Shown piece by piece: positions 12,698 through 44,932 of a stretch of 64,000 bases of DNA. The DNA is from a virus. Taxonomy: Duplodnaviria; Caudoviricetes. Each line of letters opens with the position of its first letter. The stretch's first letter is position 1. The stretch covers positions 224,001 to 288,000 of the IMG/VR virus record IMGVR_UViG_3300036987_000310; one strand, given 5' to 3'. The notes below the pieces were generated by a model that had not been told where the DNA came from, ran no database searches, and worked only from the letters and a program-made list of their open reading frames with translations. The position numbers and the translations under genes were made by a program.

Positions 12698-13447
12698 ATG
12701 CCCAAGCCGAGAACAACGAACCCCAAAATTGAGTTTGTCCACTCGGAGCGAGCAAGAAACGCTGTTCTGGCCCGCGTGGGCGCTCTAAACGCCCAAGGCA
12801 ACGACCGGGACGTATCCAACGTTGTTTACGCGCTGCGCGACAGAGCGCGAGTGTCCGCCCGTTACGTGTGCTGGAATAAGGTGGACTCAAAGCGAGTGTC
12901 CACCCACTACGTTCTTTGGAGCGATGGGTCCCCAAAAAAGGACGACTGCCTTCCAAAGAGCGTTGTCAACGGAGTGAAGAAGGACTTTCCAGGAGAAACT
13001 GGTTTCTCCTGCGTCTTGTTCAGACACGTTTGGGCAGCCCAAGCGGAACCCAGCAGCGGATTTCTGCTGGCTTTCCCTGGGAGCGAAGACGACCTCCTTC
13101 TCGAGATCGAGCAAACGTGGATGGAAGAAGACATGGAGCAAGAGCTAGCCCCGCTCTTGCGCGAAGAATTCAAGCATGAGGTGCACCAGTTTTTGGCGTC
13201 GAGAGCCCTGTACTCGATTCGAGGTGGAATGCATCAGGCTCGCGAGAAGATGATCGAATTTGCTCACGGCTACACCCTAGCCTGGAACAAGTTCGGTGGC
13301 GAAAAAGTTCACCCGCGTCCATACGTGATTTCGCCGCGATACGGAAAAGGATCGCAAGGGGTTGCCTATATGCTCACGATTCCCCCGAAACAGCTTCTTG
13401 AAGAAGCGCAAGACGAGTTCGCTTACCAAATTGTGATGGAATCGTGA
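12698..13447 (+). CDS. hypothetical protein with C-terminal tag
   Basis: SD GAGGTGA; ends QDEFAYQIVMES*. Confidence 0.85.
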   Translation: MPKPRTTNPKIEFVHSERARNAVLARVGALNAQGNDRDVSNVVYALRDRARVSARYVCWNKVDSKRVSTHYVLWSDGSPKKDDCLPKSVVNGVKKDFPGETGFSCVLFRHVWAAQAEPSSGFLLAFPGSEDDLLLEIEQTWMEEDMEQELAPLLREEFKHEVHQFLASRALYSIRGGMHQAREKMIEFAHGYTLAWNKFGGEKVHPRPYVISPRYGKGSQGVAYMLTIPPKQLLEEAQDEFAYQIVMES

Positions 13448-15087: not shown

Positions 15088-15813
15088 ATGACTGACGAAA
15101 CAAACAGCCGTCCAACTTACGTTGTTGGCAACGATTCCAACCCGGCGCACATTCGCGCTGCGGTCGAGGGCTTGCGCAAGATGGCAAAAATGGGGGAAAA
15201 AGCGCGCCAGGCCCTCGAAGCTCTAGAGCGGGATGGGCATTTTGACCAGCTGGTTCATTGGGTGGACGGCGAAGACAAGTCGTACAAGACAATCAAGTGC
15301 AACCGCTTTCCCCGGTTCGTCGAAGTCAGCGCGGCGGACATGCCAATCCTGGACAGCCTGTGGCTGGCGTTCGGTCCCGTTGTCAAAACTCAGTATGGGG
15401 GCCACGGGTGCGTGGAGTACACTCTGTCGCTGCGCGGCGACAGATTCTATCAGAAAAAGGACCGCTCGCTCGTTTTGCAGCCGATCCCAGATCGCATTCG
15501 AGTCGGCACGCTTCGAGTTTCTAAGAAAAAGATCTCCTATCTGTCGTACGGGTCCAAAGCCGCCTATCCAGTCACCGAGAAGAAAGCCACTGTCGAGGCC
15601 ACAGTGTCGCGCATCAGCAAATGCGATGCTTTAGTCCCTCTGAGCGAAATGTGTTCCAACTTTCTTGTCGTGACAGGAGAGGGCCTACTGAATCAGCGCG
15701 CCAGGGACATGCGAGCAGGGTCTTGCCGGTGGATGACTGACGGAGGGCACGCGCAAAGGATGCTGGAAGACGCTGTTCGGACATTGTGGATCGAGGGCGT
15801 GCACGAGTCCTGA
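15088..15813 (+). CDS. hypothetical protein with C-terminal tag
   Basis: SD GGAGGTGA; ends RTLWIEGVHES*. Confidence 0.85.
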   Translation: MTDETNSRPTYVVGNDSNPAHIRAAVEGLRKMAKMGEKARQALEALERDGHFDQLVHWVDGEDKSYKTIKCNRFPRFVEVSAADMPILDSLWLAFGPVVKTQYGGHGCVEYTLSLRGDRFYQKKDRSLVLQPIPDRIRVGTLRVSKKKISYLSYGSKAAYPVTEKKATVEATVSRISKCDALVPLSEMCSNFLVVTGEGLLNQRARDMRAGSCRWMTDGGHAQRMLEDAVRTLWIEGVHES

Positions 15814-18432: not shown

Positions 18433-18816
18433 ATGGAAAGGGTCATGGCAGTGAACAAGTTGCAACCGTTGGTGCAGATGCAACCGTGCGTCGAGATCTT
18501 GTTGGGGCGCGAGCTCCCGGACATGCGCGGCGCGTTTAAGCGGACGAAGATCGTTGTCGGTCGCGTCGCCACAAAGGCTATGGCCGATGAAGTCGTTGGC
18601 AGAATTCCACTCCGCGATGAAGCGGAGGAGCCAAACTCATCTTGGCTTGAATGCAGGAACGCTGTTGCGCCCGTTGGACGCAAGGTACACACCAGTGTGG
18701 ATGAAGGCGTGAAGGCAGTCATCGCGAAGCTTGTCGGCAAACGCGCCATGGACGACGTGGGGGACTATTGCGGCGTGCTTGTGTTGGCAAATGATATGGA
18801 AGGAGTGACGGAATGA
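18433..18816 (+). CDS. hypothetical protein
   Basis: ORF; ends GVTE* as does 17684-18130 (EVTE*). Confidence 0.6.
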   Translation: MERVMAVNKLQPLVQMQPCVEILLGRELPDMRGAFKRTKIVVGRVATKAMADEVVGRIPLRDEAEEPNSSWLECRNAVAPVGRKVHTSVDEGVKAVIAKLVGKRAMDDVGDYCGVLVLANDMEGVTE

Positions 18817-19739
18817 AGTTGGACGAAGAAAATGTGCGAAAGCACGTGATCGCAGTCGTAAAAGACGACCCAACGATCCCGGAAGACGAACTGCGCGACG
18901 GTCTTCCGGTGGTCTCCATCGACGGAGTGAAGTGTGCCGTGGACACCAACAACGGGGTGATCCAAACGGGAGAGGGCCGCGAGCAGCGCTGGTTCGAGCT
19001 GCACTTGCGCGACGTGACCCCCAAGCGGTTTCTGTCGCGCGAGCAGCAAGAGGCCATGGCTGCCGAGCAAGAGGACTGGTGGCTCGTCAGCTCTTCCCAG
19101 CGCTCGTGCTTCGTGCGAAACAAGAAGCGCTCCGGAGCCATCATGGACTTCCTCATGCGATTTCCGGGCGAGGCGGCGTTTGGGATGGATATGCCCGAGG
19201 CCGAGCTGGCGAGGGGCTTCGAGTTCATCGACGATGAAGGGGACCGGATTCGGACCGAGTTCATCGCCAAAGAAGTCATGGAGACGGTGGCTGACCCGCC
19301 CGATCCGCCTCAGCGCCCGCAGGCGGCCACGCCTCAAACGCCCACGGGCTCCATGGGATGCCCTCCAGGCCAATGCGTTTGCGGCGGATGCTACCCCGAT
19401 CCAACAGAAGCTTCGCCCGAGCCGGACAGGCCGGACTTCAAGCCTGAGGACTTCTACTTCGGCGTGGCAGAAGCGTCCACCTTCGGCGGAGACACGAACG
19501 ACAAGTGGCTGACCGTCTGTCCGAAGAAGCATTGGGATGAGCACCACATCCCGTATGATGGGCACCTGGACGTCGAACATCTGTTTCCCGAGTATCTGCA
19601 GTACCCCGCGGACATGGAAGCCATCTGGATCCTGCCCGACAACGCGATGACCGAGGACGTGGCCATCGACATGACCGTTCTCGGATTCGAGCGCAACCTA
19701 GAGCTGGAGGGGCTGCTCGACGAGGTTCACGAGTCATGA
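18813..19739 (+). CDS. acidic hypothetical protein with C-terminal tag
   Basis: 308 aa, high GC3; CVCGGC; ends LEGLLDEVHES*. Confidence 0.85.
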   Translation: MKLDEENVRKHVIAVVKDDPTIPEDELRDGLPVVSIDGVKCAVDTNNGVIQTGEGREQRWFELHLRDVTPKRFLSREQQEAMAAEQEDWWLVSSSQRSCFVRNKKRSGAIMDFLMRFPGEAAFGMDMPEAELARGFEFIDDEGDRIRTEFIAKEVMETVADPPDPPQRPQAATPQTPTGSMGCPPGQCVCGGCYPDPTEASPEPDRPDFKPEDFYFGVAEASTFGGDTNDKWLTVCPKKHWDEHHIPYDGHLDVEHLFPEYLQYPADMEAIWILPDNAMTEDVAIDMTVLGFERNLELEGLLDEVHES

Positions 19740-20826: not shown

Positions 20827-21324
20827 ATGATCAAGACGAAGGTTTTTGTCGTGGCCAGAATCGAGGGGTGGCAGAACAGTCTTGCCGAACGGATCGCCAC
20901 AACGCTCGGCTTGCCTCCAGGCAGCGTGCAAGTGAAATTGCGCCGCGGAACAATCGAGGCTCGGGTGGAAGCCCGAGCGATGAAGCCCGAATCGAAATTC
21001 GCAACCGAAGCGGTGAAGCTAATCCTCTTTCTGACAGAGAACCACTGGCCGTCTCGTTGCCCGCCCGAGGTCATTCTGCGCGGCCCTTGGCAGACATCCC
21101 TTTGCTCCCTACACAGTTGGCAAGAAACGAGGGCGAGGGAAAGGGCTTCCTTCGTCGAGAGAAATTACAACCCAGACAAAATCCGCAAAATCGTTCGAGA
21201 CAAATCGTCTCCGATCCGAAGCAAGCTTGCCTCGGCTGCGAAGCACTTGTCAGACGCCGAATTGCAGGACGTGTTCAGGGAGGCACTAGAAAAATCGAAG
21301 GTGACGGCAAACAATCATTCGTGA
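20827..21324 (+). CDS. hypothetical protein
   Basis: 165-aa ORF. Confidence 0.7.
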   Translation: MIKTKVFVVARIEGWQNSLAERIATTLGLPPGSVQVKLRRGTIEARVEARAMKPESKFATEAVKLILFLTENHWPSRCPPEVILRGPWQTSLCSLHSWQETRARERASFVERNYNPDKIRKIVRDKSSPIRSKLASAAKHLSDAELQDVFREALEKSKVTANNHS

Positions 21325-21403
21325 AGAGTGGCTTGTGGTAAAACCCGCAGTCCGACTGGGCCATCAGGATCAAGGTCAAGCCGCAGCTCATCTGAAGCCC
21401 ACC

Positions 21404-35970: not shown

Positions 35971-36156
35971 GTACCCCTTCTTGGGAGGGGAACCGGATGC
36001 ATGCCTGAAAATGGGTCCTCGCGAAACGATCTGGGTCCGCTCAGTTTTTGCGCAAACAGTTCTTTTCGTCCGATTAAACACTGACCGATTGTTCAGTATT
36101 TCGATTGTTCAGTGTTCCAAGGAACAAACGGCATTCATCGCCAGAAGCAAAACGCC

Positions 36157-36378
36157 ATGAGAAGGACCGATGGCAAGATTGTTTGCGACCTGAACAGTTG
36201 CACGGCCCTGGCTGTTGTGGCGATGGTTGGAAAGCCCAACTCCGGGGATTTGGGGCCGGAGTGGGTGTCGTTCAGGTGCGCCGAGCATTCGGGGCCGTCG
36301 TGGGATCGGCATGTCGACAAGATCCCGGTGCAAGAGTGGGAAAAGCTTCAAGGCTTGAGGGAAGTGCACGAGTCGTGA
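36157..36378 (+). CDS. Zn-finger microprotein with C-terminal tag
   Basis: CDLNSC..RCAEH; ends EKLQGLREVHES*. Confidence 0.75.
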   Translation: MRRTDGKIVCDLNSCTALAVVAMVGKPNSGDLGPEWVSFRCAEHSGPSWDRHVDKIPVQEWEKLQGLREVHES

Positions 36379-43001: not shown

Positions 43002-43072
43002 AATCTTCAAAAGAGTTTTTGAAACGTCGTATACTTTAGACTTTTAATGTAATGTTTAGTAGTTGGTAAACA

Positions 43073-43429
43073 ATGAACAAATTCGGAGAATACGTTAAAA
43101 ACGTCCGGGAAGCTAAAAAGGCTGAGGACTCAAGTTTTTCTCTTAGAAAAATTGCCCGAAAAGCGGGGATGTCTCCAACATTTCTAAGCCGAATGGAATC
43201 TGGGTCTGACTCTTCGCTTCCGTCAGATGAAAAAATAGTTAAACTCGCTGAAGCCATAGGGGAAGACCCCGACGTCTTATTGGCTGTGGCTGGAAGAGTT
43301 TCAAGAAGGCTCCAGGATGTCATAACAAAGCGGCCACAGCTTTTTAGGGAATTGATCCTCCAGTTAAAAGACGCTCCCGATCATGCGATTCTGAGGGTGG
43401 TTCGAGAAGTCAGAGACGGAAAGTGGTGA
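43073..43429 (+). CDS. XRE-family HTH transcriptional regulator
   Basis: FGEYVKNVR..SLRKIARKAGMSPTFLSRMESG; ends EVRDGKW*. Confidence 0.9.
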   Translation: MNKFGEYVKNVREAKKAEDSSFSLRKIARKAGMSPTFLSRMESGSDSSLPSDEKIVKLAEAIGEDPDVLLAVAGRVSRRLQDVITKRPQLFRELILQLKDAPDHAILRVVREVRDGKW

Positions 43430-44685
43430 GGAATACGCAAATGTTGGAACTAAAAAACTACAAGCTCTTTTTTCAGTTTTCGGAAGTTCATCCGAGCGCT
43501 AGACTCGAAGTGATCTTTCACCGAACGCTTCGCATTCCGGACGACGAAAAAACTTACCCGCTCCCCCCGAGCTTAGGAACTTTTCCGATTGCCCATGTCG
43601 ACGACTACAAAGACAAGGTTCCGGAAAAATGGATAAAGCACGGCGGGGTAATGCTCCCCATGTGGCAATCTGAAGCAGTGTGGCTTCAGTTCGTGTCGTG
43701 TCATGTTCCCGGTCATTCGCATGTGTGGCCTTTTGCCATCAAGGTTTCCACTGGGAAAAGGTCTGCAGTCACCGGGAAAGCATGGTCAAAGACTCTTCGA
43801 GAAGGAGACTACCTGGTCATCCCGGAACAGAAATGGCTTGACGGGTATGTAGTGGAAGACGGCGTAATCAGGCAGTTTATCGCTGCTCCGCTTGGGATGG
43901 GCGCCACGGCAGAGGAGCAGATCACTGGGAAGGCTGAACACGGTGGTCTGCAGATCGAAGTATACCCCATGTCCGCTGTCGAATATATGAAAAGATGGCC
44001 TCAGCTCCCTGTTACACGTCAACGCAGGTCCATACTCCGAAGTTATGACAACGGCGAGGAAAAAACGCTTGGCGGAGTCGAGCTTTTTGACTTTGACTAT
44101 GAAAGAGAAGCCGATGATGACACGACGCCAATCGCGTGTGCTGGGTCTAGCGCGTATCTAACCGGATCCGTAAACGTTTCCAACATTTCCGAGATTTCCG
44201 AGAGTTGGTCGTCGACGTCAGTCAACACGGTCAACGCATCGTGGAACGGAGCTCGCGGCATAACGACGAAGAACTGCTCACTCACGCCGCAGTCTGCAAC
44301 AATTCGTCCCGACATGGGTCTTGCTCCTGGTGGCCGGATGGCGCAACAGGTGTTTTCTGACACCTATGGCATGGAAGTTTGGGACACAAGTCACCACGAT
44401 AGGTGCTTCGTTCACTTGTCAAACTCTTTAGCATGGAAGGCCATCACAGGGAAAGATGCGCCGACCATTCCGCTGTCTGCGGCAGACTATAGTCGACATG
44501 GAATGCCCTGGTTCAGTCACTATTGTGATGCCCCAACCGTGAAGCCTTCCAAAAAGATTGCCGGACTAAAGAGCGCCATACAGATCGGTGAAGAAAAAGG
44601 CGTCCCTATTGTTTTGGAGAATGAGTCGGCACAGCCGAAAACTGTTGTGCACACGACAGAAGTGCGCGATGGAAAGTGGGGTTGA
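43423..44685 (+). CDS. conserved hypothetical protein
   Basis: FHRTLRIPDD..YPLPPSLG.FP, EAVWLQF, QKWLDG, QFIAAPLG; ends EVRDGKWG*. Confidence 0.85.
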   Translation: MVRNTQMLELKNYKLFFQFSEVHPSARLEVIFHRTLRIPDDEKTYPLPPSLGTFPIAHVDDYKDKVPEKWIKHGGVMLPMWQSEAVWLQFVSCHVPGHSHVWPFAIKVSTGKRSAVTGKAWSKTLREGDYLVIPEQKWLDGYVVEDGVIRQFIAAPLGMGATAEEQITGKAEHGGLQIEVYPMSAVEYMKRWPQLPVTRQRRSILRSYDNGEEKTLGGVELFDFDYEREADDDTTPIACAGSSAYLTGSVNVSNISEISESWSSTSVNTVNASWNGARGITTKNCSLTPQSATIRPDMGLAPGGRMAQQVFSDTYGMEVWDTSHHDRCFVHLSNSLAWKAITGKDAPTIPLSAADYSRHGMPWFSHYCDAPTVKPSKKIAGLKSAIQIGEEKGVPIVLENESAQPKTVVHTTEVRDGKWG

Positions 44686-44686
44686 T

Positions 44687-44932
44687 ATGTCTTGCAGGAT
44701 CACGTGCTGTTCGAATCACTGCTACCATGTAAACACAGACCCGATTCACATGGTAGTTCCATACGGCCATTTGATATACAAATGCTGCAAGTGCGGACAC
44801 ATTATGGTAACTGCTCCATACCACCCGGTCCAAACGTGGGCTTGGAGCCCGACTGTCATGCCGGGGCCCGTCACAGTTTGCACGACATGGTCATTCAATC
44901 GCGATCAAGTTAGGGGTGGAAGGTGGACTTGA
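44687..44932 (+). CDS. Cys/His-rich small protein
   Basis: CCSNHCYH..CCKCGH; ends QVRGGRWT*. Confidence 0.6.
   Translation: MSCRITCCSNHCYHVNTDPIHMVVPYGHLIYKCCKCGHIMVTAPYHPVQTWAWSPTVMPGPVTVCTTWSFNRDQVRGGRWT

Follow-up and report, generated by a model that had tools for sequence, protein, structure and literature searches.

A C-terminal tail shared by an XRE-family repressor and its downstream-encoded partner in a huge phage: a predicted tail-and-pocket switch

HipB-HipA is a type II toxin-antitoxin system of Escherichia coli, in which the gene of an XRE repressor comes first and that of a larger partner second. HipB carries a C-terminal extension with a conserved terminal Trp and represses its own expression through palindromic operators. 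In SinR/SinI (and SlrR/SlrA) of Bacillus subtilis, the repressor and the product of a neighbouring gene have a C-terminal interaction element in common, and the repressor is controlled by an exchange of partners through this element (PMC3163267). CapH-CapP and ImmR-ImmA are also pairs of a regulator and a partner, found on mobile elements and phages. The PDZ domains of DegS/Tsp and the TPR readers of EEVD recognize a short terminal peptide with its free carboxylate and terminal aromatic residue, and it is a common regulatory device that a protein's own tail fills its binding site (pseudo-ligand autoinhibition). Here we analysed a 64-kb stretch (the window; positions 224,001 to 288,000 of IMG/VR record IMGVR_UViG_3300036987_000310) of a phage whose whole genome is one contig of 376,674 bases. 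Three consecutive genes in the window end in nearly the same peptide. The first two encode an XRE-family repressor and a large protein and form a cassette, which resembles XRE-headed toxin-antitoxin modules (HipBA) in layout and SinR/SinI in logic, and is a member of neither. The three genes and their tails are as follows.

43073 to 43429, + strand: XRE-family repressor (XRE protein), 118 amino acids (aa), with a helix-turn-helix (HTH) domain, three more helices and a C-terminal tail
43406 to 43426, + strand: XRE tail EVRDGKW, residues 112-118, the predicted pocket ligand (from the complex model and conservation)
43441 to 44685, + strand: large protein, 414 aa, of a beta-sandwich superfamily without description, carrying the predicted pocket and its own tail (from homologues and an AlphaFold 2 (AF2) model)
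44659 to 44682, + strand: own tail of the large protein, EVRDGKWG, disordered in the monomer model (predicted local distance difference test (pLDDT) <50)
44687 to 44932, + strand: small Cys/His-rich protein, 81 aa (87 aa from the in-frame ATG at 44669), recognized as a conserved open reading frame (ORF) with a Cys/His pattern
44906 to 44929, + strand: third tail, QVRGGRWT (relatives end VRNGKWV, VRNGRWT and VRSGTWT)

A sequence-only reading of this DNA had claimed that three consecutive genes end in [EQ]VR[DG]G[KR]W, and all three ORFs and their endings are as it described. The ORFs (43073-43429, 43423/43441-44685 and 44687-44932) are co-oriented and end REVRDGKW, TEVRDGKWG and DQVRGGRWT, respectively, each directly before the stop codon. 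Six-frame translation of the window contains exactly three copies of the motif (43406-43426, 44659-44679 and 44906-44926), and each is a gene end. Genome-wide, the broader pattern VR[DEGN]Gx[WFY] at most two residues from a stop was found solely at the same three gene ends. A rough estimate from amino-acid frequencies gives about 6e-4 copies of the seven-residue pattern per window by chance, and a chance origin of the three matching ends was rejected. The codons for Arg (AGA, CGC and AGG) and Val (GTC, GTG and GTT) are unlike among the three tails. Different codons in the first two tails had been taken as a sign of protein-level selection, and the homologues bear this out, since their tails use all synonymous codons (4/4 for Val, 6/6 for Arg, 2/2 for Asp and 4/4 for Gly). 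The XRE and large genes had also been described as overlapping. This is correct for the GTG at 43423, with which the large ORF opens, but not for the supported start; every homologue begins MLEL, and thus the true start is the ATG at 43441 (414 aa), which lies 11 nt past the XRE stop codon with GAGGA, contained in this gap, 8 nt upstream.

We gathered 80 bacterial and 23 phage loci with homologues of the large protein. The bacterial loci come from Planctomycetota, Gemmatimonadota, Acidobacteriota, Myxococcota, Verrucomicrobiota, Pseudomonadota and others, and the phage loci are mostly on contigs of 190-620 kb; the bacterial scan confirmed at least 580 stretches. An XRE homologue lies directly upstream of the large gene in 64 of the 71 bacterial loci with enough upstream sequence and in 12 of 22 phage loci, and every one of these XRE proteins (64/64 and 12/12) ends [VI][RK]DGxW. 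In three distant loci the XRE gene directly upstream ends VRDG[KD]W. The sequence-only reading had asked whether homologous XRE/partner pairs of bacteria and phages keep matching tails; they largely do, with the tail in all 76 upstream XRE proteins and a related one in most of the large proteins. Among 45 partners, V113, R114, D115, G116 and W118 of the XRE tail are invariant, and the x position varies. The large proteins carry a similar tail, [VI]-[RK]-[DE]-G-x-[WF] or VRE[WF], in 68 of 76 members from bacteria and 17 of 23 from phages (about 85%) and in 199 of 269 family sequences. Nearly all of the best 120 homologues end xVR[DEV]Gx[WF], at times with 1-3 further residues, and phage members without an XRE partner still have the tail. 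Tails are kept however far away the next gene starts: the distances range from an overlap of 7 nt to, in cleanly called ORFs, gaps of >100 nt. Clustering of neighbouring ORFs at 111 loci showed that the XRE and large proteins alone recur, with no third conserved cassette gene among these loci. The cassette is spread over many phyla and occurs on chromosomes, plasmids and phages; cultured bacteria carry it on megaplasmids, where it is annotated only as an HTH regulator and a hypothetical protein. Carriers in culture include Stieleria tagensis TO1_6 (L007), Euzebya pacifica DY32-46 (plasmid; WP_114594674 and WP_114594673) and Bosea sp. RAC05 (plasmid; WP_069052717 and WP_069052716). From gene order and homology, the phage carries in its XRE and 414-aa genes one copy of a two-gene cassette that is very widespread, mobile and self-contained. 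The cassette, its fold and its peptide motif are undescribed in every library searched, and a literature search joining huge phages, XRE and the C-terminal motif gave no match.

The large protein belongs to a big family, with more than 3,583 homologues in a word index and 4,663 representatives of 50%-identity clusters in a profile search. Members have 330-430 aa and are about 50% identical across phyla. No match was found for it in Pfam, NCBIfam, PHROG or PADLOC, nor in a profile search of PDB sequences with E values up to 10, and a Pfam scan of 74 alignment members (E up to 1) gave no recurrent weak match. A cluster look-up of the homologues returned only 'hypothetical protein' and no informative names. 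A Foldseek search of the PDB with the predicted structure found nothing convincing, and the best matches in a wide VIA-align search were generic beta-sandwiches (Z 4.5). With no convincing match in sequence libraries, PDB or fold searches, assignment to a known family was rejected. The AF2 model has an overall pLDDT of 84. Residues 1-190 and 290-405 (pLDDT >90) form one beta-rich unit, and the two halves of the fold are separated by an insert.

44008 to 44310, + strand: variable disordered insert, about residues 190-290, between the fold halves (pLDDT 35-68)

The length of this insert differs among homologues, many of which align only across the two flanking conserved blocks. Invariant polar residues of the family include R28, T29, R31, D34, D35, Q76, E78, Q130, Q145, E158, Q160, Q171, Q302, D307, R321 and H325. 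In the model, by sequence register, H325, R321 and F323 are on one strand. Look-alikes in the ESM Atlas were unannotated bacterial clusters, one VWA-fused cluster and Ascomycota proteins with ubiquitin-like domains (template modelling (TM) score about 0.5-0.6). Fused members of the superfamily (P0202, P0130, P0177, P0180 and P0251) carry an N-terminal UBA domain, a C-terminal VWA domain, Sel1 repeats or DUF932; the UBA-fused P0202 retains the tail SVRDGSW.

We modelled the complex of the XRE and large proteins. The interface score (ipSAE, interaction prediction score from aligned errors) was 0.64, compared with 0.00 for the best control. Of 80 solved complexes, 58 reach this mark, as do 2 of 110 mismatched pairs. 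The three runs share at least 90% of their contacts, and the partner has a pLDDT of at least 80. On the XRE side, the modelled interface consists of residues 111-118 only. On the side of the large protein it consists of residues 1-5, 9, 52-54, 66-70, 106, 167, 171 and 320-323, among which G68, G69, Q171 and R321 are invariant. Two segments of this predicted pocket are as follows.

43594 to 43650, + strand: pocket residues 52-54 and 66-70 (HVD ... KHGGV) of the modelled interface; G68 and G69 are invariant
44398 to 44409, + strand: pocket residues 320-323 (DRCF) of the modelled interface; R321 is invariant in set A1

The contacts match the conservation of the XRE tail: its V, R, D, G and W do not vary, and the most exposed tail position, x, is the variable one. 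The model thus indicates that the XRE tail inserts into a conserved pocket on the large protein.

A covariation test, which is independent of the complex model, compared, in 84 non-redundant pairs, the charge of the tail position x with that of every column in the large protein. Residue 66, the predicted contact of x, ranks first of 241 columns, with mutual information of 0.258 versus 0.148 for the next column. The odds ratio for the charge of x against residue 66 is 0.07 (Fisher p 1.8e-7; the counts ignore shared ancestry). The own tail of the large protein also covaries with pocket residues. Among 256 tail-bearing members, those with Arg/Lys in the own tail have Asp at residue 54 in 196 cases and Glu in 16, and those without it have Asp in 9 and Glu in 19 (odds ratio 26, p 2e-12), and no other ranked column tracks the own-tail Arg/Lys as well. 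The top 12 columns for this covariation also include positions 167, 322 and 325, and residue 66 ranks 5 of 316 for the charge of the own-tail x. In the cassettes of a Euzebya plasmid and of locus L117, the XRE tails (VADGDW and VTDGDW) and the own tails (VTDGTW and VSDGSW) all have no Arg, and residue 54 is Glu. Members without a tail point in the same direction, as K106, R321 and H325 relax more in them than most other invariant residues; R321 drops to 72%, compared with 85-100% for most others. The Gln/Glu residues that stay invariant in these tail-less members suggest a second functional site. Covariation of W versus F in the own tail with the pocket was discarded as evidence because it is confounded by clade structure. 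Taken together, there is moderate evidence, from covariation among homologues, that the own tail reads the same pocket, and this makes competition plausible; we infer that the regulator tail and the own tail compete for one site. The sequence-only reading had proposed that the tails compete for one binding pocket, and such a pocket on the 420-aa protein now has computational support, for the XRE tail from the complex model and the charge covariation at a contact residue, and for the own tail from covariation with the same pocket.

We consider it reasonably probable that the cassette works as a switch in which the XRE tail docks in the pocket of the large protein, the own tail is a pseudo-ligand and the small phage protein is an extra competitor. 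In this mechanism, the XRE protein would repress itself via the palindrome that covers its own start site, and its final eight residues (REVRDGxW-COOH) would insert into the conserved pocket of the downstream-encoded beta-sandwich protein. The model buries Val between strands and sets Arg next to the backbone of residues 68-69 (for Arg, covariation indicates D54) and Asp next to R321; Gly packs against the backbone of residues 66-68, and the terminal Trp lies against H67 and F323. The similar but weaker tail of the large protein, on its disordered C-terminus, would read the same pocket in cis or between copies. The XRE tail might hold the large protein neutralised or tethered, as an XRE antitoxin does with its toxin, and the own tail would be a built-in pseudo-ligand. 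In the huge-phage clade of the window the small Cys/His-rich protein would have gained a third, Asp-less tail and is probably a further competitor.

Several points weigh against this switch. The complex score is the model's own confidence, and the AF2 monomer leaves the own tail undocked (pLDDT <50). The covariation counts are not corrected for shared ancestry. Phylogenetically independent pairs for x and residue 66 gave 0 changes in the same way, about 4 in the opposite way and about 6 unchanged, which is consistent in direction and underpowered (median p 0.125). The window itself breaks the charge rule, since Lys is found at residue 66 as well as at the x position of both the XRE and the own tail, and the cassette of L116 retains the XRE Arg despite Glu at residue 54. 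In a clade with F tails, the XRE tail stays VRDGxW and the own tail is VREGxF, and therefore the XRE and own tails are not interchangeable. Finally, the tail of HipB, the E. coli XRE antitoxin with a conserved terminal Trp, is a Lon degradation signal that is not needed for binding to HipA (PMC3376134), so that such a tail can serve another purpose.

This last point leads to an alternative that we regard as unlikely, namely that the shared tail is an address for a third party, most likely a degradation tag for a protease or adaptor of the host (Lon, ClpXP or similar). Every protein of the module would then be subject to joint turnover, and the large protein would not bind the tails. The 16-residue disordered tail of HipB with its conserved Trp is a transferable Lon signal and dispensable for HipA binding (PMC3376134), and the tail of the large protein is also disordered. 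In the phage locus L095, a gene read as ClpP-like lies directly upstream of the large gene and replaces the XRE gene. About 60 other ORF ends in the genome of the window bear a different C-terminal motif, which speaks for C-terminal addresses being in use in this phage. However, a third-party reader would not be expected to make the variable and Arg positions of the tail covary with exactly those pocket residues, and the complex model seats the tail among invariant residues that form a pocket on the partner (controls 0.00). The tail is kept in more than 10 bacterial phyla, in phages and in the UBA-fused P0202, and a common protease reader is unlikely among the Ascomycota look-alikes with ubiquitin-like domains. 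Binding and a degradation tag could also act together, with binding shielding the tag. As for the L095 locus (L095:2380-2973, on a 194-kb phage contig), the ClpP-like reading ends ...EEAKEYGLIDEVISSGD and stands in the usual place of the XRE gene, and the adjoining homologue of the large protein ends EVHDGKW.

It is quite improbable, in our judgement, that the large protein is an enzyme that trims, ligates or modifies C-termini, both its own and those of the XRE and small proteins, with the pocket as its active site. Among the features that would fit an enzyme are the unusual conservation of the family (members from different phyla are about 50% identical), its many invariant polar residues and the position of H325 on the same strand as R321 and F323; protein-tagging chemistry is hinted at by the fusions and look-alikes that have UBA and ubiquitin-like domains. 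Nevertheless, no known catalytic motif or fold was detected in the Pfam, Foldseek, VIA and PDB searches, and variants that lack Gly (VREW or VREF) still occur. Most invariant Gln/Glu residues stay so in tail-less members while K106, R321 and H325 relax, which suggests two separate sites rather than one. Hardly credible is a by-product at the DNA level, already considered when the motif was first noticed, in which the GGAAAGTGG-like gene-end sequence would be the ribosome-binding site that couples translation of the following gene: GGAARGTGG is common to the three gene ends in the window, and GAGGA, 8 nt ahead of the next start, overlaps the XRE stop codon, but the tails are conserved as protein, persist with every synonymous codon and at all spacings, also end genes without a co-oriented downstream gene (L004), and keep Val and Arg invariant upstream of the purine-rich stretch, so that a Shine-Dalgarno or translational-coupling origin was rejected.

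The switch that we favour has a less certain third member. The small Cys/His-rich ORF is kept at the same position in four related huge-phage loci, where it is 40-60% identical with a conserved Cys/His pattern, and the large proteins of these loci are up to 75% identical to that of the window. It has no Pfam, NCBIfam or PHROG match and no homologue in the word index. The Asp of the third tail is replaced by G, N or S, and thus the contact with R321 in the model would be lost; the homologue in locus L001 has no tail. The third gene's tail had been counted with the other two as part of one small switch. It is limited to the close phage clade and one other contig, and from this distribution the third tail is rather a lineage-specific addition outside the core system. 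On the other contig, L114:1222-1584, an unrelated-looking Cys/His-rich protein of 120 aa overlaps the end of a distant homologue of the large protein and ends EEVEDGRW. A small downstream protein that bears a tail thus exists outside the close huge-phage clade.

The XRE protein matches Pfam HTH_3 (PF01381) at 3.5e-9, with 37 bits against a gathering cut-off of 23. This five-helix HTH domain above the Pfam cut-off places it in the XRE / Cro-C1 class. It also matches the PADLOC capH model (6.5e-8). The closest solved HTH in a PDB sequence search is SinR (5e-8), with a match that spans only the HTH (residues 8-70), and P22 C2 was also matched. In the AF2 model (pLDDT 93), the HTH helices occupy residues 3-72, helices continue as far as residue 114, and the final four residues lie outside any helix. 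Upstream of the gene are two candidate control sites.

43006 to 43035, + strand: promoter-like site TTCAAA-18 nt-TATACT, a match to the consensus only (1 found, 2.1 expected by chance; weak alone)
43053 to 43072, no strand assigned: operator-like palindrome with arms TGTTTA and TAAACA, directly 5' of the XRE start codon

In most bacterial cassettes, a palindrome TGTGTAGTAT-ATACTACACA stands just before the XRE start, and the 7-mer ACTACAC is present in 67 of 89 upstream regions. The window palindrome is weaker than this bacterial one and has the same position. In the bacterial loci (L006-L085), the near-identical 20-bp palindrome TGTGTAGTATATACTACACA is kept across phyla, 0-25 nt upstream of the XRE start. 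Operator conservation of this strength across phyla, if these palindromes are operators, is unusual. We infer that the XRE protein binds the palindrome before its own start. The element TTAG[AG]C[TC]TTTAATGTAA, which adjoins the promoter-like site, is conserved in related huge phages. In addition, a 10-nt inverted repeat, TTTTAATGTA / TACGTTAAAA, flanks the XRE start codon (window 43042-43051 and 43091-43100); its left arm lies inside the element TTTAATGTAA, which is invariant in related huge phages.

With these features, the cassette can be set beside the systems mentioned at the outset. As in HipBA and other toxin-antitoxin modules, two co-oriented, tightly spaced genes with the regulator first form a mobile, self-contained unit with its own operator-like palindrome, and the C-terminal extension of the repressor finishes with a conserved Trp; auto-repression would be a further likeness. 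In contrast to HipBA, the tail is the sole modelled contact and the partner bears a matching tail, while the HipB tail is not needed for HipA binding. No HipA-type kinase or other toxin domain was found in the large protein with Pfam, NCBIfam, PADLOC and PHROG or in the 74-member Pfam scan. The likeness to SinR-SinI lies in the HTH, which is closest to that of SinR, and in a C-terminal element shared by repressor and neighbour. In SinR-SinI, however, this element is a helix pair that provides the heterodimer surface, and a two-helix multimerisation domain in both proteins is not seen here: only the last 7-8 residues are shared, and the tail is modelled as an eight-residue terminal peptide with a free carboxylate in a pocket. 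SinI is a small antagonist, unlike the cassette partner, which is a beta-sandwich of 330-430 aa. The cassette is like CapH-CapP and ImmR-ImmA in being a two-gene unit of regulator and partner on mobile elements and phages with an XRE protein that matches the capH model, and differs from them in gene order and in the shared tail. The capH fit concerns the regulator alone, and the large protein has no match to an M78/ImmA-type or other peptidase family in Pfam or PADLOC. The short terminal peptide and the logic of an own-tail pseudo-ligand recall the readers of C-terminal peptides (PDZ and TPR-EEVD). No PDZ or TPR fold was among the Foldseek/VIA matches, the best of which were generic beta-sandwiches with Z at most 4.5, and a weak or missing match need not mean a different fold. 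As far as the libraries and papers searched reach, V-R-[DE]-G-x-[WF] is no described peptide class.

Other gene ends of the phage were also inspected. An ORF of about 198 aa, with its end at window 21321-21341, finishes FVKSGLW before the stop; this is a loose likeness to the tail and possibly chance. In the 377-kb genome, about 60 ORFs with 70 aa or more have a different ending, V-[HMQ]-[EDSNGT]-[STAGKQE] (e.g., EVHES, VMES and QKVMSA), compared with about 1.5 expected from its internal frequency. Sixteen of these ends are in the window (1111-36378; e.g., 12698-13447, 15088-15813, 18813-19739 and 36112-36378), and most are at genome positions 103-262 kb. This ending is probably the 'first' C-terminal motif of the sequence-only reading, which had called the tails discussed here a second one. 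It resembles a C-terminal address or a processing signal used throughout the phage.

Hundreds of bacterial species and many huge phages carry the cassette, which also occurs on megaplasmids and has no description in the libraries searched. As a broader and more tentative proposal, which we put forward with some doubt, the large protein may found a very widespread new superfamily, whose beta-sandwich reads C-terminal V-R-[DE]-G-x-[WF]; the repressor, the own tail and the small huge-phage protein would compete for one pocket that gates an effector, and the relatives with UBA and ubiquitin-like domains would extend this logic to eukaryotes. The proposed mechanism is specific and can be tested cheaply, as it names an eight-residue peptide, the pocket residues and two predicted compensatory pairs (x with residue 66, and Arg with D54). 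If it is true, the large protein would represent a new peptide-recognition fold, and removal of the tail or a block of the pocket would be a route to the function of this protein. The tail-and-pocket pair would be portable and usable as a tool. Furthermore, a phage could tap a bacterial switch by placing the same tail on another of its proteins.

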